Below, one piece after another: positions 1-33,054 of a stretch of DNA of 64,000 bases. Origin of the DNA: Thermobifida alba (GTDB lineage Bacteria > Actinomycetota > Actinomycetes > Streptosporangiales > Streptosporangiaceae); assembly GCF_023208015.1 (NCBI RefSeq), contig NZ_CP051627.1, positions 3,452,422 to 3,516,421 on the forward strand, in the 5' to 3' direction. The notes below the pieces were generated by a model. It was not told where the DNA came from, searched no databases, and saw only the letters and a program-made list of their open reading frames with translations. The position numbers were made by a program, and so were the translations under genes. Positions within the stretch are counted from its first letter, which is position 1. Every line of letters starts with the position of its first letter.

Positions 1-3000
1 AGCGTGCCGTCGTAGCGGCGGCCGAGCGTGCGCAGCCCCGCCAGGACGTCGGCGGGCACCTCGAAGCTCCGGGTGGCGCCCGCCGTGCCGCGCACCGGGG
101 GCCGCGGACGGTCGGTGGGCAGTTCCAGCGGGACCGCGCCGTCGAGGTGCTCCCGCCAGTGCTCCAGGCCGCCGGCGAACTCGGCGCTGTCGAGGTAGCG
201 CTCCTGCCACACCGCGTAGTCGGCGTACTGGAGGGGAGCGGGGTCCAGCCCCGCGCGGTCGGCCAGCCGGTCGGCGGACTCGCCGGGATGGGCGGCCGCC
301 GCGCTGTAGAGGGCGCCGAGTTCGCGGGTGAGCACCGACATCGACCAGGCGTCCGTGACGATGTGGTGGAGGACGAGCAGCAGCACGTGCTCCTCTTCGG
401 CCGTCCGCGCCAGCAGCATCCGCACGGGCGGTCGCGCGTCGAGTTCGAAGGGCGTGTTCACCTGTTCGGCGAGCCGCCGTTCCAGTTCGGCGTCCCGGTC
501 GGGGTGCGCCGACAGGTCCGCGACCTCCAGGGGCGCGCCCGCCGGCGGGTGCACCACCTGCACGGGGCGGCCGCCGCGGTCGTGGAAGGTGGTGCGCAGC
601 GCCTCGTGCCGGTGGACCAGCGCGTCGAGCGCGGTCCGCAGGGCCGTGGCGTCGAGGGGGCCGGTCAGCCGCAGCGCGCCGCCGGAGTTGTACTCGGCTC
701 CGCCCGACTCGTAGCGGTCGAGGAACCACAGGCGGCGCTGCGCGGCGGACATCGGCAGCTCCCCGTCCCGGGGGACGGGGGTGATACGGGACACCGGTCC
801 GGCGGTTCCGGCGGAGCGCAGCGCCTCCGCGAGTCCGGCGACGGTGGGGCGGTCGAAGACGGTGCGCGGGGGCAGGCGCACCCCGAAGACGTCGGCGATC
901 CGGGAGACCAGCCGGATCGCGCCGACCGAGTCGCCTCCGGAGCGGAAGAAGTCGTCGTGGACGCCGACCTCCGCCACGCCGAGCAGGTCGGTCCACAGGT
1001 CGGCGAGCCGCTGTTCGGTGTCGTCGCGCGGGGCGGTGTACCCGGCGCCGCCGCTCCAGTCGACGGCGGGCAGCGCGCGGCGGTCCACCTTGCCGTTGGC
1101 GTTCAGCGGGATCGTGTCGACGGGGACGACCGCGGCGGGGACCATGTGGTCGGGGAGCACGTCGGCGGCGCGTTTCCGCAGCAGTTCGGGGTCGGCCGCG
1201 TCGTCGGTCGCGGGCACCGCGTAGCCGACCAGCCGCCTGCCGAGGGGGGTGCGGTCCACGACCACCACCGCCTGGGCGATCTCGGGCAGGGCGGTGAGCG
1301 CGGTCTCGACCTCCCCCGGCTCGATCCGGAACCCGCGGATCTTGACCTGGTCGTCCACACGCCCCAGGAACTCCAGCTCACCGTCGGCACGCACCCGCAC
1401 CAGATCCCCCGACCGGTACATCCGGGCCCCGGGAGGACCGAAGGGATCAGCCACGAACCGCGACGCGGTCAACCCCGACCGACCGTGGTACCCACGCGCC
1501 ACCCCCTCCCCCGCGATGTACAACTCCCCCGACACCCCCGCACCCACCGGACGCAGCCAGTCGTCGAGCACGTACACCCGGGTTCCGGCCACCGGGTCGC
1601 CGAGGGGCGGTGCCGTGTCGCCGCTGAGGGGGGCGCTCATGGTGGCGCACACGGTCGCCTCGGTGGGGCCGTAGCCGTTGAACACGCGCCGTCCCGGGGC
1701 GAACCGCGCCACCTGTTCGGCGGGGCACGCCTCACCCGCGACGATCAGGTCGGTGACCGGGCCCAGGTCGTCGGGGGAGAGGCCGGGCAGGACCGCGGGC
1801 GGCAGGGTGACGTGGGTGATGCGGTACCCGCGCAGCACGGCGGGCAGTCCGTCGCCGAGGACGCGGTCCCGGGGCAGCATGACCACGGTGCCGCCGTTGA
1901 GGAGGGCCACGACCAGCTCGGCGATGGCCGCGTCGAAGCTGGGGGAGGCGAACTGCAGCAGGCGGGTTCCGGGGCCGACCTCCATCCGCCGTCCCTGGGT
2001 GTGGGCGAGGGCGGCGATGCCGCGGTGGGTCACCACCACCCCCTTGGGGGTCCCGGTGGAACCGGACGTGTAGATGACGTAGGCCGCGTCGTCCAGGCCC
2101 GTCCCGTCGGCGGCGGGCGCGGCCTCCCCGGTGGTCCTCTCCTCGTCCGGGCGCAGCACCGCGGTCCCGTCCGGCACCCGGTCGGCGGTGCGCGCGTCCG
2201 CCACCACCAGCCGGGCCCCGGCGTCCGCCACCATGAACTCCAGCCGCTCCCCCGGATACGCCGGGTCCAGCGGCAGGTACACGCCCCCCGCGCGCACCAC
2301 CGCCAGCAGCGCCACCACCGAGTCCGCGCCCCGCTCCAGGCACACCCCGACCCGGTCGCCCCGGCCCACGCCCCGCGCACGCAGCCCCGCGGCCAGCCGC
2401 TCCACCCGTTCCGCCAGCTCCGCGTAGGTGAGTTCACGCTCGGCGTCGACAACGGCGACGGCGTCGGGGTGGGCGGCGACCACGTCGGCGAACAGGTGCG
2501 GCAGGGGACGCGGCGCGGGAGCGGGCGCTCCTGGCCGGATTCCCTCCGCCTCGTGGGAGGGGCCGGTCCGGTGCAGCGGCCGCGGATCGCGCACCGCGGC
2601 GAAGACCGCACGCAGGTCCGCGGTCAGCGCCTCGACGGTGGCGCGGTCGAAGATCTCGGTGTTGTACTCGACGGCAGCCTCGATCCCGTCGTCCCGGGGG
2701 TGGAACTCGGCGGTCAGGTCGAACACCGAGTCGCGGCGCCGCACCGGGAACGGCCGGGCGTCCAGGCCGCCCAGCGAGGCCGGGGCGTCGCCTCCGGCGT
2801 TCTGCAGCACCACCGCGGCCTGCACCAGCGGTGGGACGGCCGGGTCGCGTTCGTCCAGCACCGCGTCCACGACGACGTCGAACGGCACCCCGGCGTGGTC
2901 GAGGTCGGTGAGCACGTCGTCGCGGACGCGTTCCAGGAACTCACCGAAGGAGAGCCGCTCGTCGACGGTGCCGCGCAGCGCGACCGTGTTGACGAAGAAC

Positions 3001-4013
3001 CCGACGGCGTCGTGCAGGCGCGGGTCGTCACGGCCGGCGGTGACCGTGCCGAGCACCACGTCGTCGGCGCGGGTCCAGCGCGCCATGGCCAGGCGCATTC
3101 CGGCGACCAGGACGGTGAAGAGGTTCGCGCCGTGCTCGCGGGCGGTCTGCTCCATGGCCGCGGCGGTGTCGGCGGGGATTCGGAAGGAGACCGAGTCGCC
3201 GCTGCCGCCGCGCACCGGCGGGCGGGGCCGGTCGGTGGGGAACTGGAGGGGCTCGGCTCCGGCGAGCCGGTCGCGCCAGTAGGCGACGGACCGCTCGTGG
3301 CGCTCGCCGCTGAGCCGGCCGCGCTGCCAGGAGGCGTAGTCGGCGTACTGGAGGGGAGGGTCCGCCAGTGACGCGGCGGCGAGCAGGTCCGCTCCCCGCA
3401 GGCCGGGGGCGGCGGCGGCCGCCGTGTACAGCCGGTCCAGTTCGCCGCGGAGCAGGCCGATGGACCAGCCGTCGGTGACGATGTGGTGCATGACCGCGAG
3501 GAGCACGTGCCGGTCGGCGGCGACGCGGACCACGTGGAACCGCAGCGGCGGCCCGGTCTCCAGGTCGAAGGGGCGGGCGTAGCACTCGTCGACGAGGGCG
3601 CGCAGGGCCTCCTCGCCTCCCGGGGGTGCCGGCACGACGTCGACCGCCGCGTCCGTGGGCGCGTGCACGACCTGGACGCCTTCGCCGTCCACCTCGTGGA
3701 AGGTGGTGCGCAGCGACTCGTGCCGGTGGACCAGGGCGGTGGCCGCCCGGCGCAGCGCGTCCTCGTCGAGGCCGCCGCGCAGGTCGAGGGCGAAACCCGA
3801 GTTGTAGTCGGTGCGTCCGGGGTTCATCCGGTCGAGGAACCACAGGCGCTGCTGGGCGTGCGACAGCGGCAGCGGGGCGTCCCGGGACACCCGGGGGATC
3901 TCCGCGGTGCGTTCGCGCCGCGCCGCCAGTCGCCGCCGCATCTCCTCCTGGAGCCGGGTCCTGGTCGCGGCATCGGTCTGACCGGTGCGATTCGTCGCGC
4001 GGTCGACGGTCAT
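1..4013 (-). CDS. Non-ribosomal peptide synthetase, 5'-partial in window (continues past position 1). C-A-T-C... Start ATG at 4011-4013 (reverse strand), preceded by GGAGGAG.
   Basis: Reverse-strand translation from 4013 gives MTVDRATNR...[24 protein letters not shown] (LCL-type C-domain C1 motif). HHIVTDGWS (C3) follows. An A domain follows (SGSTG...; [30 protein letters not shown] at ~1440-1380, verified codon by codon), then T (GGDS), then a second C domain towards position 1. Not in the ORF track because it has no in-window stop. Confidence 0.9.
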
Positions 4014-4072
4014 GGGGTCTGCTCCTCCGCTGGTGGGGTCGTGGGTCGGTGACAGGCGGTGTCCCGGCGGGA

Positions 4073-7000
4073 TCAGTCGGTCATCTCCTTCAGGACGGCT
4101 TCTTCGACCGCGGCCGCGAACTCGCGGAGGGTGGGGTGGTCGAACACCGTCCGGGTGGGGACGCGCACCCCGAAGGCGGACTCGATTCCGGAGACGACCC
4201 GGATTCCGGCCACCGAGTCGCCGCCGATGTCGAAGAAGTTGTCGCGCGCGCCGACCCGCTCCCGGCCCAGGGCTTCGGCCCACAGTTGCGCGACGACCTC
4301 CTCGGTGACGGTCTCGGGCGGTTCGTAGGGGGCCGCGGAGGAGCCGTCCGGTCGGGGCAGGGCGCGGCGGTCCACCTTGCCGTTGCGGTTGAGCGGCAGC
4401 TCGTCGAGGAGCAGCAGCGTCGCGGGAACCATGTAGGCGGGCAGGGAGCGCGCCAGTTCCGCGGTGACGGCGTCGGGGTCGGGGGCGGCGCCGGGCTCGG
4501 GGACGAGGTAGCCGACCAGTGTCCGCGACCCCGAGGGCGTGTCGACGACGGCGGCCGCGGCGTGGGCGACCCCCGGGCACGCGGCGAGCGCGTTCTCGAT
4601 CTCCCCGAGTTCGATGCGGTGGCCGCGCAGTTTGATCTGGCCGTCGGCGCGGCCCAGGAATTCGATGCGGCCGTCGGCGTTCCACCGCACCAGGTCGCCG
4701 GTGCGGTAGAGCCGTCCTCCGGGGGTGAAGGGGTCGGCCACGAACCGTTCGGCGGTCAGTCCGGGCCGTCCCTCGTAGCCGCGGGCGGTCCCGTGTCCGG
4801 CCAGGTACAGTTCGCCCACCGCGCCGACGGGGACCGGGTGCAGGAAGTCGTCCAGCACGTGCGCGCGGGTGCCGTCCATCGGGCGGCCGATGGGGGCCGC
4901 TCCGTGCTCGGCCTCGGCCGCGCTGATGGGGGTGCAGGTGGCGAAGGTGGTCGTCTCGGTCGGCCCGTAGACGTGCACCACCTCGGTGTCGGGGCAGGCG
5001 GCCAGGACCTTGGCGAAGGACGCCGGGTGGGCGGCCTCACCGCCGGTCCACACCTCGCGCAGCCCGGTGAAGCACCCGGGGTCCTGCTGGGCGAACAGGT
5101 TGAACAGGGCGGTGGTGAGGAAGACCGCGGTCACGCCGTGGTCGCGGACGCAGCGGCGGAGCGTGTCGGCGGTGACGTCGTCGGGCGGGGCGACCACGAC
5201 GGTGCCGCCGCCCAGCAGCGGTGCCCAGATCTCGTAGGTCGCGGCGTCGAACGCGTGCGGGGAGTGCCACAGGACGCGTTCGTGGCCGGACGTCCAGTGC
5301 CGGTCGCGGGCCAGGGCGACGATGTTGCCGTGGTCGACCACGACGCCCTTGGGGACGCCGGTGGAGCCGGAGGTGAACATCGTGTACGCGGCCGTGGCGG
5401 GGGAGACCGGCACGGTGTCGGCCGCGGGGCCGGGGTCGGGGCCCTGCGGGGTGCGGGGGCCGAACTCGACGACGGGGACGGCCGGTTCGCCGGGGAGGCG
5501 GTCGCGCAGGTCCGGGTCGACGACCGCGGCGCGGGCGCCGGTGTCGGTGAGGACGCGGGCGATCCGGTCGGGCGGGAAGTCCACGTGCACCGGGACGTAG
5601 GCGGCTCCGGTCTTGAGGACGGCGAGCATGGCGACGACGGTCCGCGGTGACCGGGGCATGAGGAGCAGCACCCGGTCCTCGCGGCCGACGCCGTGGCCGC
5701 GCAGCCGCGCCGCGAACCGGTCGGCGGCGGCGTCGAGTTCGGCGTAGCTGAGGGCGCCGCCGTCCCAGACCAGGGCGGGCGCGTCGGGCCGTTCGGCGGC
5801 CTGCGCGGCGAACAGGTCGGTGACCGACCGGGTCGGCGGCTGCGCCTGGGGGCCGTGGACGACGTCGGGGCCCGGTGCGGCGGTGGTGCGCCGCAGCCGT
5901 CCCAGGGGCGCATCGGGGTCGGCGGCGAGTCCGGCGAGGACGTCGACCAGGTCGCTGAGCAGGCGGTGGGCGGTGTCGGTGTGGAAGGCCGACGGGTCGT
6001 GGCCGAGCAGCAGGCGGATGTGGTCGCCGTCGTAGGCGGCCAGGGTCAGGGGATAGTTGGTGGCCTCGTCGGCGTCGACCCGCTCCACGGTGATGCCGTG
6101 GGCCCGGGCCGCCTCGGTGTCCACCGGATAGTTCTCGAACACCACCAGACTGTCGAACAACGGCGTCTGCGCACCCAGCGTCTCGGCCTGGATACGGTGC
6201 AACGGCACATGGTCGTACTCACGCGCCTCCAACTGCGCCTCCTGCAGAGCACGCAGCCACCGGACCACCGGCACCCCCGGCTCCACCCCCACCCGCACCG
6301 GCAGCGTGTTGATGAACAGGCCCACCGCCGAGTCCATGCCCGCCACCTCGGCACGACGCCCCGACGTCGTCGCCCCGAACACCACGTCACGCTGCCCCGA
6401 CCACGCCGACAACACCAACGCCCACGCCCCCTGAACCAGGGTGTTCAGCGTGATGCGACGGGAACGGGCGAAGTCGCGCAGTCTCCGGGTCTGTTCGACG
6501 GACAGTTCGCGGGGCAGGCGCGCGGTGGAGCGGGCGGTGCGTACGTCGCGGGGCGCCTGGTCGTAGGGCAGCGCCGTGGGCCCCTCGACCCCCTCCAAAA
6601 CCCGCCGCCAGTACGCCAGCCCCGACTCGGTGTCCCGCCCGGACAACCACTCCAGATGGTCGGCGAACGGCCGACGCCGCGGCAGCTCCTCCCCCGCATA
6701 CGCCGCGAACACGTCCGACAGCACCAGCGGCAGACTCCACCCGTCCAACAACAGATGGTGGAACGTCCACACCACCACCACACGGCCCCCGGCCAACCGC
6801 ACCAACCCCACACGCACGGGGGGTTCGTCGGCGAGGCGGAACTCCCGGGCCCTGTCCTCGGCCAGGAACTCCCTCAGGGCGGTGTCCCGGTCGCAGTGGC
6901 GCCGGTCGTGCACGGTCACCGACGCCTCCCGGTTCTGGTGGACCACTTGGACGGGGGAGTCCAGCCCCTCCCAGACCACCGTGGTCCGCAGCACCGGCGT

Positions 7001-10000
7001 TGCCCGGATCACCCGCCGCCACGCCCCGGCCAACCGCTCCACATCGTCCACCCCGGACAACTCCACGACCACCTGCTCCAGGTAGGCCGCCGAATCCGGC
7101 TCCAACAACGAGTGGAACAGCATCCCCTCCTGCATCGGCGTCAACGGCAACACGTCGACCACACCACGCCCGTCACCGACCAACCGGTCCACCCGCGCCT
7201 GGTCCAACGCCACCAACGGAAAGTCCGACGGCGTCGCACCCCCCACACCCCCGGACCGGCACAACTCCACCAACGCGACCACCTCGGCCACGAACCGCTC
7301 CGCCACCGCCACCACCGTCTCCCGGTCGTGGATCTCGTGCGAGTAGGCCCAGTCGAAGACGAGGCGGTCGCCGTCGTGGCGTCCGACGACGTCGATCAGG
7401 TGGGCCCTGGGGTGGTCGGGGTCCTGGGTGCCGCGCAGTACGGCCGAGGTGAAGGGCGTGCCGGTGGCGGTGTCGAAGCGGCCGAGGTAGTTGAAGCCGA
7501 CCGCAGGCACCGGAACCCGACCCAGCACCTCCCGCGCCCGCTCACCCCCCAGATAACGCAGCGCCCCGAACCCCACCCCCCGGTTCGGCACCGCACGCAA
7601 CGCCTCCTTGGTCCGCTTCAACAGCACCACCGGATCGGCGTCGTCCTCCAACGCCACCGGATACACACTGGTGAACCAGCCCACCGTCCGCGAGACATCC
7701 ACCCCGTCGAACAACTCCTCGCGGCCGTGGCCCTCCACATCCACCAACACCCGGCCCGCACCGGTCCACCCGCACAACACCCGACCCAACGCCGCCAGCA
7801 GCACATCGTCCACCCGCGCCCGAAACACCGACGCAGCCCCCCGCAACAACCCCTCCACGACATCGGGGGGAAGCGCGACCGACACCGTGCGCTGGGTGGA
7901 GACGGTGTTGGCTCCGTCGGCGTCCACCGGCACCTCGGCTTCGGCGTCGTCGGCGGCGACGGCAGTCCAGTGGTCGAGTTCGGTGTCGAAACCGCCCGCG
8001 GCGGTGAACTCCACCAACCGCCGCGCCCACTCCGCGAACGCCGTACTCCCCGCCCCCAGATCCACCGGCTCACCAGCCACCGCACTCCGGTAACCAGCCG
8101 CCAGATCCTCCAACAACACCCGCCACGACACCCCGTCCACCACCAGGTGGTGCGCCGCCAACAACAACCGCGCCCCCCGCACACCCCCGTCGAACACCAC
8201 CGCCCGCACCACGGGGCCGTCCGTCAGCGACAGTTCGGCCTCCACCCGGGCGGCGGTCTCGGCGATCACCGTGTCGGGGTCGTCCGCGGCGTCGAGGGTC
8301 ACGGTCTCGACGGCGGGGGCGGCCGCGGCGTCGTCGATGCGTGCCGCACCGTCCTCGACACGCAGTCGGAGCATGGCGTGCCGGTCGGCCAGCGCGGCCA
8401 CCGCCACCCCCAACGCCTCCCGGTCCACCCCCTCGACCAGATCCACCAGCACCGACATCGCGAAATGGTCCACACCGGCCGCATACACGTCGAAGAACCA
8501 CCGCATGATCGGCGTCAACGGCACCGGACCCGACACCGCCCCGCCGTCCACCCCACCCCCGGCAGCCTCCTCAACCACCGCCACCTCGGCCAACGCCGCC
8601 ACACACTGCCGCGCGAACACATCCCGCGACGTCACCACCACACCCTCACGCCGCGCCCGCGCCACCACCTGCAAACTCAGAATCGAATCCCCGCCCAACG
8701 CGAAGAAGTTGTCGTACACACCAACCCGATCCACCCCCAACACCACCGCGAACACCTCCGCCAACACCCGCTCCACCCCACTACGCGGAGCCACATACTC
8801 ATCGGCGGCGTTCGCGTTCCAGTCGGGTTCGGGGAGCGCGGACCGGTCCACCTTGCCGTTGCGGGTGACCGGGACGGTGTCGAGGACGAGCACGGAGTCG
8901 GGGACCATGGCGGGCGGCAGCGAGGCGGTGAGGGCCGAACGCAGTTCGGCGGCGTCCAGTTCGGTCTCCGCCTCCGCGACGACGTAGCCGACGAGGCGGC
9001 TCGCGTTCCGGTGGTCGGAGCGGACCACGGCCACGGCCTGGCGGACTCCGGGCAGCGCGGTGAGTGCTGCCTCGACCTCGCCGAGTTCGATCCGCACGCC
9101 GCGCACCTTGACCTGGTCGTCGGCGCGGCCGGCGAACTCCAGCTCGCCGTCGGCGTTCCACCGCACCAGGTCCCCGGTCCGGTAGAGCCGCCCACCCGAG
9201 GAGAACGGATCCGCCACGAACCGCGACGCGGTCAGCCCCGGACGACCGTGGTACCCACGCGCCACCCCGGCACCACCCACATACAGCTCACCGACCACCC
9301 CCACGGGCACCGGACGCAGAAAACCGTCCAGCACGTAGACCCGGGTGCCGAGGATCGGGCTGCCGATCGGCGGGGTCCGCCCCGGTGCGAGGGGTCCGCT
9401 GAGGGTGGCGGCGACGGTGATCTCGGTGGGGCCGTAGGCGTTGACCATCCTGCGGCCCGGCGCCCAGCGGCGCACCAGGTCGGCCGAGCACGCCTCCGCG
9501 CCGACGACGAGCGTGCGCAGGTCGGGGAAGTCGCCCTCGGGCACGGTGGCCAGCACGGACGGCGGGATGATGGTGAGGTTGACGCGGTGGTCGCGCAGCA
9601 CGTCGGCGAGGTCGTCCCCGACGAGCCCGCCCGGCGGCGGGAGGACCAGCGCGGCTCCGGCGCCGAACGCCATCAGCACCTCCATCACGGAGGCGTCGAA
9701 GCTGGCGGAGGCCAGTTGCAGCACCCGGAAGCCGGGTTCGGTGCCGAACCGGTCGCGCATGGCGGCGGCGAGTTCGGCGATGCCGCGGTGGGTCACCACC
9801 ACCCCCTTGGGGGTCCCGGTGGAACCGGACGTGTAGATCAGGTAGGCGGCGTCGTCCAGGGTGAGGTCCGGGCGCGGCGCACGCGGCGGCGCGTCCGCCG
9901 GGTCGGACAGGGTCACCCGGCGCACCCCGGCGGGCAGGTCGAGGGCGTCGTCACCGGTGACGACGGTGTCGGTGCCGGAGTCGTCGACCATGAACGCCAG

Positions 10001-13000
10001 CCGGTCGGCGGGGTAGTCGGGATCCAGCGGCAGGTAGACCGCCCCGATCCGGACCGCGGCGAGCAGCGCGGTGACCAGGTCCGGGCCTCGTTCCAGGCAG
10101 ACGCCCACGACGGAGCCGCGTCCCACGCCCAGGGCGGCGAGCCGGTCGGCGAACCGGTCGGCGGCGGCGTCGAGTTCGGCGTAGCTGAGGGCGCCGCCGT
10201 CCCAGACCAGGGCGGGCGCGTCGGGCCGTTCGGCGGCCTGCGCGGCGAACAGGTCGACCAGGGTCTGCGCGCGCAGCGGTCCGGGGTCGGCGTTCCACTC
10301 GGTGAGCACGCGGGCGCGCTCGTCGGGGTCCTGGAGGGGCAGGGCCGCGAGTCCGCGTCCGGGGTCGGCGGTCAGTTCGCGCAGCAGCCGTGCCACCCGG
10401 TCCAGCAGCTGGCGGGCGGTGTCGGCGTGGAACGCGGACGGATCGTACCTGAGGTGCAGGCGGATGTGGTCGCCGTCGTAGGCGGCCAGGGTCAGGGGAT
10501 AGTTGGTGGCCTCGTCGGCGTCGACCCGCTCCACGGTGATGCCGTGGGCCCGGGCCGCCTCGGTGTCCACCGGATAGTTCTCGAACACCACCAGACTGTC
10601 GAACAACGGCGTCTGCGCACCCAGCGTCTCGGCCTGGATACGGTGCAACGGCACATGGTCGTACTCACGCGCCTCCAACTGCGCCTCCTGCAGAGCACGC
10701 AGCCACCGGACCACCGGCACCCCCGGCTCCACCCCCACCCGCACCGGCAGCGTGTTGATGAACAGGCCCACCGCCGAGTCCATGCCCGCCACCTCGGCAC
10801 GACGCCCCGACGTCGTCGCCCCGAACACCACGTCACGCTGCCCCGACCACGCCGACAACACCAACGCCCACGCCCCCTGAACCAGGGTGTTGACCGTCAT
10901 CCGGTGGGTTCGGGCGAACCGGTGGAGGGCAGCGGTGTCCTGCTGGGGGAGGTGGTGCTCGATCCGTGCGGTGGAGCGGGCGGTGCGTACGTCGCGGGGC
11001 GCCTGGTCGTAGGGCAGCGCCGTGGGCCCCTCGACCCCCTCCAAAACCCGCCGCCAGTACGCCAGCCCCGACTCGGTGTCCCGCCCGGACAACCACTCCA
11101 GATGGTCGGCGAACGGCCGACGCCGCGGCAGCTCCTCCCCCGCATACGCCGCGAACACGTCCGACAGCACCAGCGGCAGACTCCACCCGTCCAACAACAG
11201 ATGGTGGAACGTCCACACCACCACCACACGGCCCCCGGCCAACCGCACCAACCCCACACGCACGGGAGGACGGGACCACGTGTCCATGCCTTCGGCCCGG
11301 TCCGCGGCGAGGTACTGCTCCAGGTGGGCACGCCGGGAGTCGGCGTCGTGGTCGCTGAGGTCGTGGACGCGCACCTCCGGTTCGGTGCTGCGGTGGACCA
11401 CTTGGACGGGGGAGTCCAGCCCCTCCCAGACCACCGTGGTCCGCAGCACCGGCGTCGCCCGGATCACCCGCCGCCACGCCCCGGCCAACCGCTCCACATC
11501 GTCCACCCCGGACAACTCCACGACCACCTGCTCCAGGTAGGCCGCCGAATCCGGCTCCAACAACGAGTGGAACAGCATCCCCTCCTGCATCGGCGTCAAC
11601 GGCAACACGTCGACCACACCACGCCCGTCACCGACCAACCGGTCCACCCGCGCCTGGTCCAACGCCACCAACGGAAAGTCCGACGGCGTCGCACCCCCCA
11701 CACCCCCGGACCGGCACAACTCCACCAACGCGACCACCTCGGCCACGAACCGCTCCGCCACCGCCACCACCGTCTCCCGGTCGTGCAGCGCCTCGGAGTA
11801 GATCCAGTCGAAGACGAGGCGGTCCTCGACGACCCTGCCGACGACGTCGAGCACGTGCGGGCGGGGCGAGTCGGGCGCGTACTCGCCTCCGGGGTTGAGG
11901 GTCAGCCCGGCGACCGGTCCGTTGTCGCTCTCGGTGTCGAAGCGGCCGAGGTAGTTGAAGCCGACCGCAGGCACCGGAACCCGACCCAGCACCTCCCGCG
12001 CCCGCTCACCCCCCAGATAACGCAGCGCCCCGAACCCCACCCCCCGGTTCGGCACCGCACGCAACGCCTCCTTGGTCCGCTTCAACAGCACCACCGGATC
12101 GGCGTCGTCCTCCAACGCCACCGGATACACACTGGTGAACCAGCCCACCGTCCGCGAGACATCCACCCCGTCGAACAACTCCTCGCGGCCGTGGCCCTCC
12201 ACATCCACCAACACCCGGCCCGCACCGGTCCACCCGCACAACACCCGACCCAACGCCGCCAGCAGCACATCGTCCACCCGCGCCCGAAACACCGACGCAG
12301 CCCCCCGCAACAACCCCTCCACGGCAGGGGAGGGGACCTCCACGGTGACGGTGCGCTGCGTCGCGGCGGTCGCGGTGCGTCCGCCGGGGGCGGGAAGGTC
12401 GGTGTCGAGGGGGACGTCGGGCTCCGCGCCGGCGGCGACGGCAGTCCAGTGGTCGAGTTCGGTGTCGAAGCCGCCCGCGGCGGTGAACTCCACCAACCGC
12501 CGCGCCCACTCCGCGAACGCCGTACTCCCCGCCCCCAGATCCACCGGCTCACCAGCCACCGCACTCCGGTAACCAGCCGCCAGATCCTCCAACAACACCC
12601 GCCACGACACCCCGTCCACCACCAGGTGGTGCGCCGCCAACAACAACCGCGCCCCCCGCACACCCCCGTCGAACACCACCGCCCGCACCACGGGTCCCTT
12701 CGCCGGGGAGAGGGACGCGTGCACCTGGTGGATGCGGGTCTGCAGGGCCTCGTCGGCCTGTTCGGGGGCGAGGCCGGACAGGTCGACGGTTTCCAGGGTG
12801 AGGTCGGCGGGTTCGGCGGGCAGCCACGCCCGGTCGCCGTCGGCGCGCAGTCGGAGCATGGCGTGCCGGTCGGCCAGCGCGGCCACCGCCACCCCCAACG
12901 CCTCCCGGTCCACCCCCTCGACCAGATCCACCAGCACCGACATCGCGAAATGGTCCACACCGGCCGCATACACGTCGAAGAACCACCGCATGATCGGCGT

Positions 13001-16000
13001 CAACGGCACCGGACCCGACACCGCCCCGCCGTCCACCCCACCCCCGGCAGCCTCCTCAACCACCGCCACCTCGGCCAACGCCGCCACACACTGCCGCGCG
13101 AACACATCCCGCGACGTCACCACCACACCCTCACGCCGCGCCCGCGCCACCACCTGCAAACTCAGAATCGAATCCCCGCCCAACGCGAAGAAGTTGTCGT
13201 ACACACCAACCCGATCCACCCCCAACACCACCGCGAACACCTCCGCCAACACCCGCTCCACCCCACTACGCGGAGCCACATACTCATCGGTGTCCCGGAC
13301 GTCGGGGGCGGGCAGGGCGGAGCGGTCCACCTTGCCGTTGGCGTTGAGCGGCATCGCGTCGAGGCGGACGAGCACCGAGGGGACCAGGTAGTCGGGCAGC
13401 CTGCCCGCGAGCGCGGCGCGGACGGCTTCGACGTCGGCGTCGGCGCCGACGAGGTAGCCGACGAGTTGGCGCACACCGGTCCCGGGCTCGTGGACCACCA
13501 CGACGGCCTCGTCCACTTCCGGCACCGCCAGCAGCGCGGCCTCGATCTCCCCGGGTTCGACGCGGAACCCGCGGATCTTGAGCTGGTCGTCGGCGCGGCC
13601 GGCGAACTCCAGCTCGCCGTCGGCGTTCCACCGCACCAGGTCCCCGGTCCGGTAGAGCCGCCCACCCGAGGAGAACGGATCCGCCACGAACCGCGACGCG
13701 GTCAGCCCCGGACGACCGTGGTACCCACGCGCCACCCCGGCACCACCCACATACAGCTCACCGACCACCCCCACGGGCACCGGACGCAGAAAACCGTCCA
13801 GCACGTAGACCCGGGTGCCGTCCAGGGGTCCGCCGATCGGCGGCGGCTCCGGGACCCCGCCGCCCCGCGGCAGCGTCGCGGTGGTGGCGTACGTCGTCGT
13901 CTCGGTGGGGCCGTAGACGTTGACCAGGTCCAGGTCCGGGCATGCCCGCGACACCCGTTCCAGGGCCGCCCGGTTGGCGGCCTCCCCTCCGGTCAGCACC
14001 TCGCGCAGCCCCGCGAAGCAGGTCGGCTCCTGGTGGGCGAACAGGTTGAACAGCGAGGTCGTCAGGAACACGCCGGTCACTCCGTGGCGGGCGACCTGGT
14101 CGGCGAAGCCCTCGGGGTCGAGGGTGCCGGGCGGGGCGACGGCCACGGTCCCGCCGGTCAGCAGCGGCGTCCAGATCTCGTAGGTCGCGGCGTCGAACGC
14201 GTGCGAGGAGTGGAACAGGACCCGGTCGTGCGCTCCGCCGCGCCAGCGGTGGTCGCTGGCGAGCGCGGTGATGTCCCCGTGGGTGACGGCCACTCCCTTG
14301 GGGGTGCCGGTGGAGCCGGAGGTGAACATCACGTAGGCGAGGTGGTGCGGCGTGACGGCGGGCAGGTCGGAGCCGTCGGGGAGCGTCTTCTCCCCGACGG
14401 GCCGTCCGGCGCGGTCCAGTGTCAGGACCGGGACGTCCACCTCTGCGGTGACGTGGGCGGAGGCCGCGTCGGTGAGCACGCACGCCGCACCGGTGTCCTC
14501 GACCAGCCAGCGCACCCGCGAGGCGGGGTCGCCCGCGTGTGCGGGGACGTAGGCGCCTCCGGCGCGGAGGACCGCGAGCATCGCCACCACGACGTGGGCG
14601 CCGCGCTCCAGGGCCAGGACGACCGGCGTCTCCACGTCCACGCCCTGGCCGCGTAGCAGTCGGGCCAGCCGGTCGGTGCGGGCGTCGAGTTCGGCGTAGC
14701 TGAGGGCGCCGCCGTCCCAGACCAGGGCGGGCGCGTCGGGCCGTTCGGCGACCTGCGCGGCGAACAGGTCGGTGACCGTGGCCGGGGGTGCGGCCGGGGT
14801 GTCGCCCGCCCAGCGCAGCAGGGTGTCGCGCGCGGCGTCGTCGCTCGGGTCCAGCGCCGCGATCCGCAGGTCGGGGTCGGCCGTCGCGGCGTCGACGATC
14901 CTGTCGAACGCGGCGACGAGCGCCTCGATGCGTTCGGGCCGGTACAGGGCGGTGCTGTACTCGACGGTGAGCCGCAGTCCGCCGTCGCGCTCCTCGAACT
15001 CGAAGACGAGGTCGAAGAGGGCGGAGCGGCGCGGAAGGTCGACGGCGTGGACGTCGAGGCCGGGGAGGTCGAGGTCGCCGGAGTGGGCGTTCTGCAGCAC
15101 CACCAGTGCCTGGAAGAGGGGGGTGCGCGAGGGGTCGCGTTCGTCGACGAGCCGCTCCACCAGCAGGTCGAAGGGCACCTCGTGGGCGAAGGCGTCGAGC
15201 ACGGTGCGGCGGATGTCGGCCAGGAAGGACCGCACCGTCGCCGACCGTTCGGGGGCCGTGCGGATCACCAGCGGGTTGACGAAGAATCCGACGACGTCGT
15301 CGAGCCGGTGGTGGTCGCGTCCGGAGGCCGCGATGCCCAGCGCGACGTCCCGGCTGCCCGAGGCGGCGACGAGCAGCAGGTGGACCAGCGCGGTCAGCGT
15401 CATGAACAGGGTGGCGTCCTCGTTGCGGCCCAGGCGCCGCAGCGCGTCGGTCGCCGCTGGGGAGAGCACGTGCCGGTGGACTGCTCCGGCCGTGGACCGG
15501 ATCTCGGGGCGCGGGTGGTCGGTGGGCAGCTCCAGCACCGGGGGGTCGGCCAGGTGCCGCGACCAGTGGTCGAGGCGCCGGCGGGTCTCGGGAGTGTCGC
15601 GGCGGTCCTGCTCCCAGACGGCGAAGTCGAGGTAGCGCAGTCGCGGTTCGGGCAGCGTGCCGCCGTCGCCGTCGACCCTGCTCCGGTAGAGGGCGGCCAG
15701 GTCGCGGTTGACGACGTCCACCGACCATCCGTCGCTGACGATGTGGTGCGAGCTCAGCACGAGGACGTGCTCGTGTGCGTCCATGCGGACCAGCAGCGCC
15801 CGGAACAGCGGTCCGCGGGCGAGGTCGAAGGGCTGCTGCGTCTCGGCTTCGAGCAGGCGGGCCAGTTCCCGGTCGCGTTCGTGCGCGGGCCGGTCGGACA
15901 GGTCTTCCTCGGTGAGGAGGTCGGCGGCCTCGGGGACGGGGGTGATCCGCTGCAGGGGGTGTCCGTCGACGTCGTCGAAGACGGTCCGCAGCGATGCGTG

Positions 16001-17956
16001 GCGGGCGACCAGGTCGACCAGTGCGGCGCGCAGCGCGGGGACGGACAGCGGTCCGCGCACCCGGTAGGCGGTGCCGGTGTAGTACTCGGTCCCGGTCTGC
16101 TCGTACTGGTCGAGGAACCACAGGCGGCGCTGCGCGGCGGACAGCGGCGCCGGTCCGTCCTCCTCGGTCCGTTCGATGGGGTCGGCTGTCCCGCCGTGCT
16201 CGCGCACGTGCTCGGCGAGCTGGGCGGCGGTCGGGTGGGCGAAGAGGACGCGCCGGTCCAGGGCCGTGCCCAGTCGGGCGTCGATGCGTGACAGCGCGCG
16301 GGCGGCCAGGATGGAGTCGCCGCCGAGGTCGGAGAAGAAGTCGTCCTCGACGCTCACCCGGTCCACCGCGAGGACCGCTGCGAACTCCTCGGCGACGGCC
16401 CGCTCGGTGTCGTCCCGCGGGGCGACGTGGTCGCGTCCGGAGGTGTCGGGGGCGGGCAGGGCGGCACGGTCGATCTTGCCGTTGGCGGTCATGGGCAGGG
16501 CGTCGAGCGGTACCACCGCGGAGGGCACCATGTGGTCGGGCAGGGTCGCGGCCAGGGCCGCGCGCACCTCGTCGGGGTCGACCCGGGTGTCGGGGGCGAC
16601 GACGTAGCCGACCAGGCGGCGCACGCCCGGACGGTCCTCGCGGACGGTGACCACGGCGTGGCGGACCCCGGGCAGGGCGGTGAGCGCGGTCTCGACCTCC
16701 CCCGGCTCGACCCGGAACCCGCGGATCTTGACCTGGTCGTCCACACGCCCCAGGAACTCCAGCTCACCGTCGGCACGCACCCGCACCAGATCCCCCGACC
16801 GGTACATCCGGGCCCCGGGAGGACCGAAGGGATCAGCCACGAACCGCGACGCGGTCAACCCCGACCGACCGTGGTACCCACGCGCCACCCCCTCCCCCGC
16901 GATGTACAACTCCCCCGACACCCCCGCACCCACCGGACGCAGCGCGTCGTCCAGGACGTACACCGAGGTGCCGTCGACGGCCCGGCCGATCGGGGGGCGT
17001 CCGGCGCCGCTGAGGGGGGCGCTCATGGTGGCGCACACGGTCGTCTCGGTGGGGCCGTAGCCGTTGAACACGCACCGTCCCCGCGACCACAGGTCGACGA
17101 GTTCCCCGGGGCACGCCTCACCCGCGACCATCAGCGACTCCAGGTCGTCCAGTCCTTCGGGGGAGAGGCCGGGCAGGACCGCGGGCGGCAGGGTGACGTG
17201 GGTGATGCGGTGCCCGCGCAGGGTCCGCACCAGCGCGTCGCCGAGGAGCCGTTCCCTGGGCTGCACCACCAGGGCCGCACCATTGAGCAGGGCCATGCAC
17301 ACCTCGAACACCGAGGCGTCGAAGCTGGGCGAGGCGAACTGCAGCACCCGGGAGTCGGAACGCACCCGCATGCGGACCCTCTGGGTACGGGCCAGGGCGG
17401 CGATGCCGCGGTGGGTCACCACCACCCCCTTGGGGGTCCCGGTGGAACCGGACGTGTAGATGACGTAGGCCGCGTCGTCCAGGCCGAGGTCGAACCGCGG
17501 GGCCGGGGCGGACGCGGCGGGCTCTCCGGTGAACACACGCGTTCCGTCGAGGAGCGTCCCCTTCCGGGCGGGGTCCGTGACGACCAGCGCCGCAGCGGAG
17601 TCGCGGAGCATGAACTCCAGGCGCTGCCGGGGATAGGCCGGGTCGAGGGGCAGGTAGGCACCGCCCGCCCGCATCACGGCGAGCAGGGCGACCACCAGCT
17701 CCGTCCCGCGCTCCAGGCACACCCCGACCCGGTCACCGCGGCCCACGCCCGCCTCGGCCAGCGCGCCGGCCAGTCGTTCGACGCGCTCGTGCAGTTCTCC
17801 GTAGGTCAGAGTCCCGGTCTCGGACACCAGCGCCACCGCGTCCGGGTTGCGTCGCGCCTGCGCGGCGAACAGTTCCGGCAGCGGCCGCGGCGCCTCGGGG
17901 GCGTCCGCGGGGCGGTTGGCACGGTCGGATTCCTGGAAGGACGGCACGGATCCCAC
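4073..17956 (-). CDS. Four-module non-ribosomal peptide synthetase (4627 aa): A-T | C(LCL)-A-T-E | C(DCL)-A-T-E | C(DCL)-A-T. No TE domain.
   Basis: Track ORF. Read from the protein: adenylation cores ([31 protein letters not shown]), PCP GGDS motifs, two epimerization domains ([10 protein letters not shown]..., [10 protein letters not shown]), DCL condensation starts ([13 protein letters not shown]) after each E, and LCL start ([11 protein letters not shown]) after the E-less module 1. Ends in a PCP (...[13 protein letters not shown]...EMTD*). Confidence 0.95.
5700..8805. repeat. Intragenic direct repeat copy 1 (NRPS module 3→4 junction: T-E-DCL C plus A-domain N-terminus). Near-identical to 10150..13289.
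   Basis: Identical ORF-track translations at a constant ~4446-bp offset (6046..6390 vs 10492..10836 are 100% identical; 6387..7022 vs 10833..11477; 7542..8030 vs 12006..12509; 8271..8987 vs 12732..13391). Short divergent islands at ~5815-5990 and ~7880-7990. Confidence 0.85.
10150..13289. repeat. Intragenic direct repeat copy 2 (NRPS module 2→3 junction).
   Basis: See copy 1. Nucleotide strings such as ggcggacgggtcgtggccgagcagcaggcggatgtggtcgccgtcgtaggcggccagggtcaggggatagttggtggcctcgtc occur at both 6000-6080 and 10440-10520. Confidence 0.85.
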
Positions 17957-18040: not shown

Positions 18041-19465
18041 TCAGGCCGCGGTGGCCTGGTCGGTGCGGCGCAGGGTGCGGCCGTTGTACTGCATGAGTTC
18101 GACCGTGTCGGCGGAGTCGGGGGCGCGCAGGAAGCGGCCGCTGAGCAGGAGGCCGCCGTACTCGGCCGCTTCGACGCTGAAGGTGAGGTCGGGCCCGGCC
18201 TCCAGGCTGCCGTGGAGGCCGTTGGAGATGTTGAAGCGGAAGGCGCCGGCCTGGTCGGGGGTGATCCGCACCGACAGTTCTCCGTTGGTGTAGTTGCCGG
18301 TGAACCGCGCGTCGGGCAGGGACGTGCCGGACGCGGGCCTCGGCTGGCGGTAGTGGCCGACGTGCAGTCCGAGGTTGCGCAGCTCGTCGACCAGGTCCTC
18401 CCACATCGCCAGGCCGGTGGTGGAGTTGGTGGTGAGCGCGACCGCGGCCCCGCCCGCCGGATCGAGGCGCACGTTGCAGGTGCCGCCGTCGAGGGTGCCG
18501 TCGTGGCCGAGCCAGCGGGTCCGGTCCGCGTGGAAGACTCCCCAGCCCGCGCACCATCCGTCGGCCAGGCCGAACGGCTCGGCGGCGCGGACCTCGCGTC
18601 CCATCTCCGCGAGCACCTCGGGGTCGGCGATCTCGGTGTCGAGTGCGGCGTGGTCGGCGGCCATGAACGCGCGCGCGAAGGCGACGAGGTCGGTGGCGCT
18701 GCCCGCGAGGCCGCCCGCGGCGGTGAGGGCGGGCTCGACGTAGAAGTCGACCGGTTCGGTGTGTCCGGTCGCGGAGTGCACCGCGTGGCCGCTGACGGTG
18801 TCGGGGCGGGCGGAGGGGGTGCGCGCGTCGTGGACGAAGGCCAGGTCCAGGCCGGTCGGGCCGAACAGGTAGGACTCGATGGCCTCCCACCAGTCCTGGC
18901 CGGTCACGGCCTCCACGACGTAGGCGGCGACCGCGTAGCCGGTGTTGGAGTAGGAGAACGCGGTCCCCGGCGTGCTGATCCACTCGGTGTCCAGGACCGA
19001 GGTGAAGTGGCGGCGCAGTGACGCCGAGCGGAGCGGGGCGCCCTCGTGGTCGGAGACCAGCCCCGAGGTGTGGCTGAGCAGGTGGCGGAGGGTGGTCGAG
19101 CGCATCGGGTGGCCGTGGGGGATCTGGTGGGACGCCAGGTGGTCGGCGACGGGACGGTCGAGTTCGATCTCGCCGTCCTCGACCAGCTGCATGACCAGGG
19201 CCGCGGTGAAGATCTTGCTGACCGATCCGTAGGGGAAGCGGGAGCGGGGGGTGACCGGGTCCGGTCGTCCGGTCCGCGTCACGCCGTGGACCGCTTCGAG
19301 CAACTCTCCGTCCAGGTACACCGCGAGCTGAGCGCCGGGGACCCGATGCCGTTCAGCGAGCTTCTCCAACAGGCCAGAAATCCGGTCGAGTTCCACTCTC
19401 TCCCCCTGAAGAGCATGTGAGCGATCGAGTATTTCCTCTGATCTCCACGTGGTATAGACACACAT
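18041..19465 (-). CDS. β-lactamase/PBP-fold serine hydrolase (class C / DD-peptidase family). Candidate PBP-type trans thioesterase/peptide cyclase (SurE/DsaJ-like) of the NRPS operon. Exact start codon uncertain.
   Basis: Track ORF. SxxK motif (GSVSKIF), YSN motif (FSYSNTGY), and a C-terminal extension after the catalytic domain. Same strand and 84 bp upstream of the TE-less NRPS. Low-GC promoter-like region directly upstream (19400-19560). Confidence 0.8.
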   Translation of the reverse strand: MCVYTTWRSEEILDRSHALQGERVELDRISGLLEKLAERHRVPGAQLAVYLDGELLEAVHGVTRTGRPDPVTPRSRFPYGSVSKIFTAALVMQLVEDGEIELDRPVADHLASHQIPHGHPMRSTTLRHLLSHTSGLVSDHEGAPLRSASLRRHFTSVLDTEWISTPGTAFSYSNTGYAVAAYVVEAVTGQDWWEAIESYLFGPTGLDLAFVHDARTPSARPDTVSGHAVHSATGHTEPVDFYVEPALTAAGGLAGSATDLVAFARAFMAADHAALDTEIADPEVLAEMGREVRAAEPFGLADGWCAGWGVFHADRTRWLGHDGTLDGGTCNVRLDPAGGAAVALTTNSTTGLAMWEDLVDELRNLGLHVGHYRQPRPASGTSLPDARFTGNYTNGELSVRITPDQAGAFRFNISNGLHGSLEAGPDLTFSVEAAEYGGLLLSGRFLRAPDSADTVELMQYNGRTLRRTDQATAA

Positions 19466-22922: not shown

Positions 22923-23606
22923 TCAGCCGGCCAGCAGCTTGACCACGGCCTCGGCCACCCCGGCCGCCGAGGCCGGGTTCTGGCCGGTGACCAGCCGTTC
23001 GCTGGCCACGATGCACGGCTGGAACTTCGGGGCCCGGACATGGACGCCGCCGCGCTCCTCCAGCTTCTCCTGGAGCAGGAACGGCACGGTGTCCGCGAGG
23101 CCGACCGCTTCCTCCTCCTCGTTGGTGAAGGCGGCGAACGCCTTGCCCGCCACGAGCGGGCGGCCGTCGGACCGGGTGAGGTTGACCAGCGCGGCCGGTC
23201 CGTGGCAGACCGCGGCGACCACGCCGCCCGCCTCGTAGACGTCGCGGGCCAGCGCGGCCAGGTCGGCGGCGTCGGGGAAGTCCCACATGGTGCCGTGGCC
23301 GCCGACGAAGTACACGGCGGCGTAGTCGGCCGGGTCGAGGCGGTCGGCCGTGGGGGTGTCGGCCAGGGCCTTCGCCACGTCGGGGTCGTCGCGGAACGCC
23401 CGCTGGACCGGGTCGTCGGGGTCGTAGCCGGTCTCGGGCGGCCGCCCGCCCCGGACCGACACGAAGGAGACCTCGTGGCCCGCCCTGCGGAACACCTCCC
23501 ACGGGTGCGCGGCCTCCGGAACGTAGTAGCCGGTGGGACCGCCGCCGTCGCCGAGCCGGTCCTGGCTGGTCAGTGCGAGCAGGATGCGCCTGGGGGGAGT
23601 CGGCAT
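22923..23606 (-). CDS. DJ-1/PfpI family protein (class I glutamine amidotransferase-like; Hsp31/glyoxalase III-like).
   Basis: AAVCHGPAAL nucleophile-elbow motif, YFVGGHG. ATG at 23604-23606 (MPTPPRRILLAL...). Convergent and abutting the LysR gene. Confidence 0.8.
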   Translation of the reverse strand: MPTPPRRILLALTSQDRLGDGGGPTGYYVPEAAHPWEVFRRAGHEVSFVSVRGGRPPETGYDPDDPVQRAFRDDPDVAKALADTPTADRLDPADYAAVYFVGGHGTMWDFPDAADLAALARDVYEAGGVVAAVCHGPAALVNLTRSDGRPLVAGKAFAAFTNEEEEAVGLADTVPFLLQEKLEERGGVHVRAPKFQPCIVASERLVTGQNPASAAGVAEAVVKLLAG

Positions 23607-23768
23607 CGTCGTCCGCCCTTCGTTCGCGGTGGTGGACCCTGCGGTCCGCTGTCGCCCACGACGGTAGACGGCGACCGCCTCCCCCACCCCATCAGCGTTT
23701 CGAGGGGGAGCCATAGGGCTGGTCATCGCTCCACGCAGGACGGCCTTCCGAAGGGCGTGTGATCCGCG

Positions 23769-24770: not shown

Positions 24771-24866
24771 ACTCCCGCGCGCCGGTCCCGACTCCTCGCT
24801 CACGGACACCAGACTGGCATTCCTTGAGGACAGGCCGCGTCCTCAAGGGCTCCTAGGGTGAGCCGC

Positions 24867-30852: not shown

Positions 30853-30953
30853 CCGCCGCGGCCGCCGCCTCCGGTGCCCGGCGGTCGGCCGCCTACCGCC
30901 GCCCTGCCCGCGGCCCGCCCGAGACTCCGAACACCCGACCCTAGGAACCGCCT

Positions 30954-33047: not shown

Positions 33048-33054
33048 GGACTGT

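Follow-up and report, generated by a model that had tools for sequence, protein, structure and literature searches.

The repeats called GRINS (genetic repeats showing intense nucleotide skews) were described in 2021 by Nivina et al. in cis-AT (acyltransferase) assembly-line polyketide synthase (PKS) genes, among them those of the tylactone, mycinamicin and chalcomycin synthases (PMC8256042). By definition a GRINS is an intra-cluster duplication of >500 bp with >80% identity and mean absolute GC and TA skews >0.15, identity being measured in 150-nt windows with a step of 30 and a five-window mean (PMC8256042). The two skews are correlated and strongest at third codon positions, and G+T-skewed regions are enriched in Gly, Val, Cys and Trp and depleted of Pro, Thr, His and Gln (PMC8256042). 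But what would such an element look like outside a PKS? Hybrid clusters have some GRINS in their nonribosomal peptide synthetase (NRPS) modules, and other gene families contain some too (PMC8256042); in the literature searched, no dedicated study of GRINS in NRPSs was found, only this passing remark. Here we describe a repeat inside a stand-alone NRPS gene of Thermobifida alba, located in a stretch of 64,000 nt of contig NZ_CP051627.1 (positions 3,452,422 to 3,516,421; 73% G+C), referred to as the window.

Two other kinds of event come close to what is seen at this locus. Exchange of subdomains of the adenylation (A) domain of the hormaomycin type, reportedly described by Crusemann et al., and substitution of A domains, reportedly described by Calcott et al., are said to contribute to NRPS evolution; bioRxiv 10.1101/2022.12.02.518901 gives them as its references 30-32. 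The T. alba locus resembles them in having near-identical carrier (T, or peptidyl carrier protein, PCP) and condensation (C) scaffolds around divergent A specificity regions, with boundaries inside the A domain, just past the A5 motif and ~35 residues into the next A domain. As far as found, those swaps come without skew, recoding or a mosaic of blocks and patches in T, C and epimerization (E) domains. The other kind is module duplication or bifurcation with neofunctionalisation in SurE-type clusters such as those of desotamide and wollamide, as summarised in PMC13500794. Those clusters and the present one are alike in a PBP-type (penicillin-binding-protein-type) cyclase beside multimodular NRPS genes and in intra-cluster recombination shaping the modules; there a whole module was duplicated (PMC13500794), whereas here the modules are old and only blocks of them are young.

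The T. alba gene lies on the minus strand, which corrects an earlier note made on this DNA from its letters alone. Its domain order, from Pfam and a core-motif map, is A1-T1-C2-A2-T2-E2-C3-A3-T3-E3-C4-A4-T4, that is, four modules, and Pfam matches number five for Condensation, four for AMP-binding and four for PP-binding. C3 and C4 would be of the DCL subtype, judging from their position after E domains. Three C domains had been counted before; the window has C2-C5 plus a partial C6, and two E domains. The parts that matter for the repeat are as follows.

4073..17956, minus strand: NRPS gene, 4627 aa (open reading frame (ORF) list, Pfam, core-motif map; G+C at third codon positions, GC3, 0.91)
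10151..13819, minus strand: upstream copy of the repeat (A6-A8 part of A2, Asub2, T2, E2, C3, first 35 aa of A3)
9350..10150, minus strand: unique A3 core between the copies, code DAMIVGAVAK, unskewed
5714..9349, minus strand: downstream copy (A6-A8 part of A3, Asub3, T3, E3, C4, first 35 aa of A4)

Modules 2 and 3 share a unit of ~3.65 kb at a 4.44-4.49-kb offset, with 85-88% overall identity. Self-BLAST aligns 5680-9447 with 10117-13926 at 87.8% identity over 3864 columns, and in a repeat search 300-nt pieces match at 91-100% with offsets of 4446-4485, which bears out the kilobase-scale near-identical direct repeats at a ~4.45-kb offset reported in the earlier note. The unit spans the A6-A8 part of one A domain, Asub, T, E, C and the start of the next A; it begins ~34 residues past the A5 motif and stops exactly 35 residues into the following A domain, the very length of A domain that had been described as repeated. 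Its upstream end had been placed at 13289, too far downstream, as there is an extra identical block within the A domain (13583-13819 / 9113-9349). Nor is the unit continuous, as had been supposed. A 100-nt identity profile and a codon-anchored alignment of both copies resolve a mosaic, in which the 87.8% is the average across two very unlike kinds of sequence. One consists of eight identical blocks (237, 441, 264, 390, 393, 297, 435 and 105 nt in the codon-level alignment) with only two differences in ~2.95 kb, both synonymous third-position transitions (GGC/GGT and GCG/GCA). The other consists of the seven patches between them, 26-103 codons long, with 30-45% amino acid identity, 52-65% nucleotide identity and in-frame indels; one covers Asub and the A-T linker, three lie in E, two in C and one in the C-A linker. 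In the lines below the upstream copy is given first, and skews are GC/AT on the coding strand.

13583..13819 / 9113..9349, minus strand: block ID1, A-domain A6-A8, 100% identical, skews +0.21/-0.38
12848..13288 / 8363..8803, minus strand: block ID2, PCP and start of E, 441 nt, 100%, skews +0.43/-0.44
12431..12694 / 7952..8215, minus strand: block ID3, E-domain HHxxxDG region, one synonymous difference, skews +0.34/-0.41
11933..12322 / 7469..7858, minus strand: block ID4, E domain to FNYLG motif, 100%, skews +0.38/-0.41
11393..11785 / 6938..7330, minus strand: block ID5, end of E and start of C, one synonymous difference, skews +0.34/-0.35
10970..11266 / 6524..6820, minus strand: block ID6, C-domain HHxxxDG region, 100%, skews +0.21/-0.37
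10457..10891 / 6011..6445, minus strand: block ID7, C-terminal half of C, 100%, skews +0.17/-0.14
10151..10255 / 5714..5818, minus strand: block ID8, first 35 aa of A3 / A4, 100%, not skewed (-0.15/+0.04)
13289..13582 / 8804-9112, minus strand: largest spared patch, Asub2 and A-T linker, 46 of 103 aa identical, unskewed
12695-12847 / 8216-8362 and 12323-12430 / 7859-7951, minus strand: spared patch pairs
11786-11932 / 7331-7468 and 11267-11392 / 6821-6937, minus strand: spared patch pairs
10892-10969 / 6446-6523 and 10256-10456 / 5819-6010, minus strand: spared patch pairs

The composition of the blocks sets them apart. A 2-kb composition table gives GC and AT skews over 6-14 kb that are opposite in sign to those of the flanking NRPS, and at the level of blocks seven of the eight (all but the short ID8) have a coding-strand GC skew of +0.17 to +0.43 and an AT skew of -0.14 to -0.44. 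Pooled values are GC +0.28 and AT -0.34 (TA +0.34) for the identical blocks, GC -0.14 to -0.15 and AT +0.13 for the spared patches of both copies, and GC -0.09 and AT -0.01 for the remainder of the gene. The shift occurs ~10-30 nt from the identity boundaries, the aggregate profile going from -0.06 to +0.34 inside 30 nt, and identity and G+T excess correlate with r = 0.75 (60-nt windows). Strongly skewed 150-nt windows number 69 over the whole 64 kb; 63 fall in the repeat region and 6 in A5 of the next NRPS. With the published GRINS procedure, run here with word size 11, sixteen duplicated segments exceed >80% identity and both skew thresholds, and mean absolute skews in every duplicated segment are 0.17-0.43 (GC) and 0.20-0.44 (TA). 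Five segments of 510-540 bp pass every criterion of the definition: 13340-12831, within which the upstream copy of ID2 falls, 10940-10401, which holds the upstream ID7, and 8870-8361, 6500-5961 and 17150-16641. The eleven further segments are cut short by divergent patches, which keeps them at 270-480 bp and so below 500 bp. Between GC and TA skews the Pearson r is 0.94 in the formally GRINS windows and 0.70 in the set labelled as outside, the latter because the sub-500-bp blocks remain in that set.

The finer signature is the same. By codon position the block skews (GC/TA) are +0.43/+0.90 at position 3, +0.39/+0.34 at position 1 and -0.03/+0.23 at position 2. As an outgroup served 40 full-length T-E-C homologues drawn from the collected NRPS loci and compared at the same columns; all 40 are unskewed, with position-3 means of -0.11/-0.08 and all-position maxima of just 0.08/0.15. 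Relative to them Val (x1.69) and Gly (x1.22) are enriched in the blocks and Pro (x0.72), Thr (x0.71), His (x0.68) and Gln (x0.48) depleted, with a negligible effect for Cys (x1.14) and Trp (x0.99). Four-fold codon boxes end in G in 70% and in C in 20% of cases, against 55-62% C elsewhere, and there are 63 GGG runs per kb, against 10-23. Since the blocks of identity coincide exactly with intense correlated GC/TA skews and inverted codon usage, the repeat in the NRPS gene at 4073-17956 is a GRINS, by definition and by signature. It shares with the GRINS of the tylactone, mycinamicin and chalcomycin synthases the intra-cluster duplication, the correlated skews with their third-position maximum, the rise in Gly and Val and fall in Pro, Thr, His and Gln, the existence of unskewed homologous synthases and, probably, the tie to gene conversion (PMC8256042). 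It differs from them in its host, a stand-alone NRPS, in which it covers T, E, C and a part of A, instead of a cis-AT PKS; in its copies, which are 100% identical where those of PKSs are typically 75-95%; in being split into eight blocks by unskewed, unrelated patches; in avoiding the specificity part of the A domain, where PKS GRINS often cover the acyltransferase domain; and in showing the G+T-rich sign only on the coding strand (PMC8256042). The PKS host is the context of discovery and no criterion of the written definition, as the same paper mentions GRINS in NRPS modules and other gene families; that one trait is absent here.

How did two modules become identical in some stretches and stay unlike in others? 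At the patch columns the two copies share 37% protein identity, and each copy shares on average 28-29%, and at best 37-39%, with T-E-C units of other genera. Modules 2 and 3 are therefore old, as their spared patches are as diverged as those between genera. In outgroup pairs (n = 780) at 30-40% patch identity, the block columns average 52%, with a maximum of 65%, and never reach 100%; between modules of such age a block identity of ~50% at the protein level is expected, and 100% is observed. Because synonymous sites are identical too, protein-level selection cannot account for this, and patch divergence at the inter-genus level excludes a recent duplication of the whole unit. We infer that the blocks owe their identity to gene conversion in modules that were already old, with one of the two modules or else a third copy as the source, and that this conversion is recurrent or very recent. 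Of the two origins proposed in the earlier note, ongoing intragenic recombination thus stands (synonymous sites are identical and the specificity codes lie outside the blocks, bar one Lys), and recent module duplication does not (patches at 37%, the inter-genus level). Donors of the divergent patches were sought in the first 22 kb by self-BLAST, which gave only ~70-75% background paralogy.

In our judgement it is likely that the repeat is a GRINS in an NRPS whose conversion overwrote conserved stretches of the old modules 2 and 3. Non-reciprocal homologous recombination would replace the conserved A(C-terminal)-T-E-C stretches of both modules with one shared sequence, G+T-rich on the coding strand and recoded chiefly at third codon positions. 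Seven intrinsically variable patches and the specificity cores of the A domains would escape, and with its core spared each module would retain its own substrate choice. The codes read DAFTMAGVCK (A1), DAYFLGVTYK (A2), DAMIVGAVAK (A3), DAYFWGVTFK (A4) and DAATIAGVCK (A5), at the positions given by a fragment of GrsA-PheA, whose numbering is consistent at 10 of 10 positions. In all cases the code residues are outside the identical blocks, save the invariant Lys, and the codes of A2, A3 and A4 agree with the previous observation that the A-domain cores differ between the copies. Where do the tracts end? Loss of homology and/or selection for module-specific patches may set their ends, and conversion may be favoured by the skewed composition itself, a proposal of the GRINS authors. 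Columns have a mean conservation of 0.45 in the patches and 0.60 in the blocks, with no patch reaching the value of any block; when the placement of the patches in variable T/E/C regions is shifted circularly, a score as low as the actual one comes up in just 2 of 1045 shifts. This placement is compatible with tracts halting where homology fails, and also with selection that keeps certain regions specific to each module, namely Asub, the C-A linker and portions of E and C. That the patches are structurally obligatory was considered and rejected, because another NRPS locus of our sample (L057) holds a gap-free 2375-nt exact run over the equivalent unit, its repeat spanning Asub, T, C and the C-A linker without a gap.

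Among the homologues collected, the same protein regions exist in skewed and in unskewed form, and the skew, where present, keeps to the same block edges. In Salinactinospora qingdaonensis (L001) the G+T excess at the equivalents of ID1, ID2 and ID3 is +0.52, +0.42 and +0.70, with none in the patches between them nor at ID7/ID8; a Nocardiopsis sp. (L003) has +0.38 at the ID1 and ID2 equivalents. The skew is weak in N. sinuspersici (+0.10 to +0.16), L002 is weakly skewed, N. xinjiangensis and N. kunsanensis have no skew at the block equivalents, and neither L080 nor L081 is skewed. Among the matches listed, module 3 has its closest homologues in Nocardiopsaceae, at 62-68% protein identity and all on 2-4-kb contigs, L001, L003, L080 and L081 being among them; the best match to the unique A3 core among those listed in a genome-contig search is 65%, likewise from Nocardiopsaceae and 2-4-kb contigs. 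No full-length orthologue is present among the 120 protein matches listed, all of which are <~960 aa and none >68% identical. The L001 contig starts and ends within block-equivalent regions, as expected if the genomes of these homologues hold similar exact repeats that break short-read assemblies.

Kilobase-scale G+T-skewed intragenic repeats also occur in unrelated actinomycete NRPS loci. Repeats of the GRINS type (skewed, 200 nt or longer and 80% or more identical) are found in at least seven of them, L057, L042, L043, L079, L059, L066 and L052, and 21 of the 81 loci have at least 10 strongly skewed windows. On the strand of the matched gene 929 strongly skewed windows are G+T-rich and 91 C+A-rich (~10:1), which points to GRINS being widespread in NRPSs, with one sign prevailing. 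The best parallel is L057, from a Pseudonocardiaceae metagenome-assembled genome, where 8248-10807 and 11443-14005 (skews +0.32/+0.40) form a like unit, from the A5 motif through Asub, T and C to the start of the next A; unlike the T. alba repeat, it has no E domain and no spared patches, the whole unit being converted, Asub and C-A linker included. A repeat of at least 95% identity occurs in 1 of 61 long loci, and no sampled locus is as bimodal in identity as this window, where, among the 64 stretches compared, 32 reach 100% identity and 19 lie <70% (L059 was left out of the pairwise profile, as its two intervals overlap in a tandem array). The kind is thus recurrent, and this specimen is unusually fresh and unusually segmented.

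Could the whole T-E-C unit, that is, a module, nevertheless have been duplicated recently, with the seven patches diverging locally or being replaced from elsewhere afterwards? The unit is kilobase-scale, tandem-like and in frame with a module-length offset of ~4.45 kb, and module duplication with neofunctionalisation is documented for the SurE-type clusters of desotamide and wollamide (as cited in PMC13500794). Yet point mutation cannot yield patches that are 37% identical, the inter-genus level, between flanks with zero substitutions. Replacement of a patch in one copy should leave a skewed, GRINS-like patch in the other, and neither copy's patches are skewed (both at -0.14 to -0.15), which makes such replacement unlikely; the A cores differ as well. 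The uniformly high identity expected of a recent tandem duplication is not seen across the unit, given seven patches at 30-45% amino acid identity, and we find this origin scarcely credible. That the true copies differ and were made identical by repeat collapse, consensus polishing or mis-joining in the assembly is very improbable too. Exact repeats of 237-441 nt are indeed longer than short-read k-mers, assemblies of other Nocardiopsaceae have homologous genes split over 2-4-kb contigs, and variants of the patches could be mis-phased between copies in a short-read assembly; the assignment of patch variants to either copy depends on the assembly. But an assembler cannot create the skew, the inverted codon usage and the G-runs that coincide with the identical blocks. 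The 4627-aa ORF is intact with all patch indels in frame, both variants of each patch align to outgroup T/E/C domains, and equivalent skewed blocks exist in independent assemblies of other genera, along with the 2.4-kb exact repeat of L057.

A different objection accepts conversion and makes the skew incidental: ordinary homology-driven conversion, or a third donor that happened to be skewed, would leave a mosaic that simply marks where homology sufficed. The patches do coincide with the least conserved parts of T/E/C domains, identity extends to stretches that lack skew (ID8 and the 3' tails), the uniform repeat of L057 shows that structure does not demand the patches, and identity does not follow skew in L079 (r = -0.30) or L052 (r = 0.09). 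Against this, the block regions before conversion would have been only ~50% identical at the protein level, on which ordinary RecA-type recombination would work poorly; of the duplicated NRPS segments sampled, nearly all are skewed; and the 10:1 G+T-rich bias of strongly skewed windows on the gene's strand points to a systematic link rather than coincidence. We therefore consider an incidental skew unlikely, though it deserves to be kept in mind. Several points weigh against the reading that we favour, a GRINS whose conversion overwrote old modules. That skew promotes conversion is a published hypothesis and not a demonstrated mechanism (PMC8256042). GRINS were defined on PKSs, with a single sentence on NRPSs (PMC8256042), and several blocks, interrupted by patches, are below the formal 500-bp threshold. 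Identity also takes in unskewed sequence, namely ID8 and the terminal 30-100 nt at the 3' side of ID3-ID7, so that it is not strictly tied to skew. The conversion may be recurrent (concerted evolution) or a single very recent event, and a third donor copy may lie beyond the window.

What does this mean for NRPSs? The locus is a very clean NRPS GRINS: its copies are perfect and its edges sharp, a single cluster holds two independent families, and homologues come both skewed and unskewed. Its clean mosaic may help to work out the origin of GRINS. The freely exchanged parts of the A-T-E-C unit are the conserved T, E and C cores and the A6-A8 region; the module-specific ones comprise the specificity core of A, Asub and the C-A linker, together with a few patches of E and C. 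Such a division of exchanged and spared parts helps to choose fusion points in NRPS engineering. Phylogenies of these T/E/C domains will report conversion history and not module ancestry, and such clusters will break or become mis-phased in short-read assemblies.

Within the blocks the skew has a direction. In all seven skewed blocks, read in coding sense, the opening 60 nt are more skewed than the closing 60 nt (mean +0.49 vs -0.04; two-sided sign test, p ~0.016): the onset is sharp at the 5' edge, and the skew fades 30-100 nt short of the 3' edge, leaving a clearly unskewed 3' tail in five of the seven (ID3-ID7); in ID7 it dwindles to none over the last ~100 nt. Are the tails merely motifs constrained at the amino acid level? 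As a general explanation this was rejected, tail conservation being 0.45-0.72 against 0.58-0.65 in block bodies, and the ID4 tail (FNYLG) is the sole clearly conserved one. The asymmetry may mark the polarity of the tracts. A bolder idea, which we rate as quite doubtful, is that the generation of skew and conversion are one transcription-oriented process, that the locus shows GRINS at the peak of its activity and that the patches are module-specific interfaces protected by selection. A low-probability candidate for such a process would be exposure of the non-template strand as single-stranded DNA, for instance in R-loops, with C->T and A->G changes and transcription-associated recombination. 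The skew is rich in G-runs on the non-template strand and has the same sign in ~91% of strongly skewed windows over the 81 NRPS loci. The hypotheses of the GRINS authors, tautomer-driven errors and lowered complexity favouring conversion (PMC8256042), are no better tested than this speculation on R-loops and deamination of single-stranded DNA.

Two side observations concern the repeat region. Segments at the C-A linker and start of A2, A3 and A4 (14632-14771, 10117-10256 and 5680-5819, minus strand) form a three-copy family with 87-100% identity and no skew, in which the third copy of ID8, at the A2 start (14632-14771), is 87-90% identical; this family is duplicated yet outside GRINS composition. 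On the opposite strand an ORF of 2987 aa (5693-14656, plus strand) covers the GRINS region almost exactly and failed the GC3 coding filter; the simplest explanation is that it arises as a side effect of the G+T-rich coding strand, since the C+A-rich antisense strand has few stop codons.

The cluster contains at least two independent GRINS families. The second one links A1 with A5, the first A domain of the next NRPS gene.

16641..17150, minus strand: A1 copy of the second family, A6-A8 region, meeting the GRINS definition (mean GC/TA skew +0.15/+0.22)
1281..1670, minus strand: A5 copy of the second family, in the next NRPS
3..4070, minus strand: start of the next NRPS, C5-A5-T5-C6..., leaving the window (Pfam)

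In the repeat search 1264-1563 matches 16650-16949 at 97% identity, and a stretch of ~200 nt (about 16900-16720 vs 1514-1334) is 100% identical with a G+T excess of +0.2 to +0.4, in agreement with the third shared segment that had been noticed between A1 and A5. The block sits at the same A6-A8 position as ID1, with a different sequence. Near the N-termini of A1 and A5 there is an older skewed pair (17779-17600 vs 2402-2222, minus strand), ~77% identical and G+T-skewed, which looks like an eroding GRINS copy separate from the A6-A8 block.

Directly upstream of the NRPS gene lies a further candidate part of the pathway.

18041..19465, minus strand: gene for a SurE-like PBP-type (beta-lactamase-fold) offloading cyclase (Pfam PF00144)

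Its product is probably a SurE-like PBP-type offloading cyclase, judged by sequence similarity, as its nearest solved relatives are PDB 6KSU/6KSV (E 1.8e-96, full length, residues 12-467) and 8FEK, 'PBP cyclase Ulm16' (E 5.6e-72). We take 6KSU to be SurE; the depositor's name is 'Alpha/beta hydrolase'. A look-up of the exact sequence of the T. alba cyclase gene gave no record. The cluster probably encodes a pathway of the SurE type to a macrocyclic peptide that has D-residues at positions 2 and 3. Beyond ~19.5 kb Pfam finds genes for regulators, MFS transporters and oxidoreductases, which do not look like assembly-line parts. A two-gene unit at 30945-38028 (plus strand), where an ORF of 700 aa without Pfam match precedes the gene for a protein of 1687 aa (DUF3686 'ATPase involved in DNA repair', DUF7902, AAA), has no relation to the NRPS. 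A WYL-domain / HTH_11 transcriptional regulator is encoded at 23769-24842 (minus strand); a DJ-1/PfpI family gene (22923-23768) adjoins it, and a gene for a FAD-binding oxidase (24828-26228) is divergent from it.

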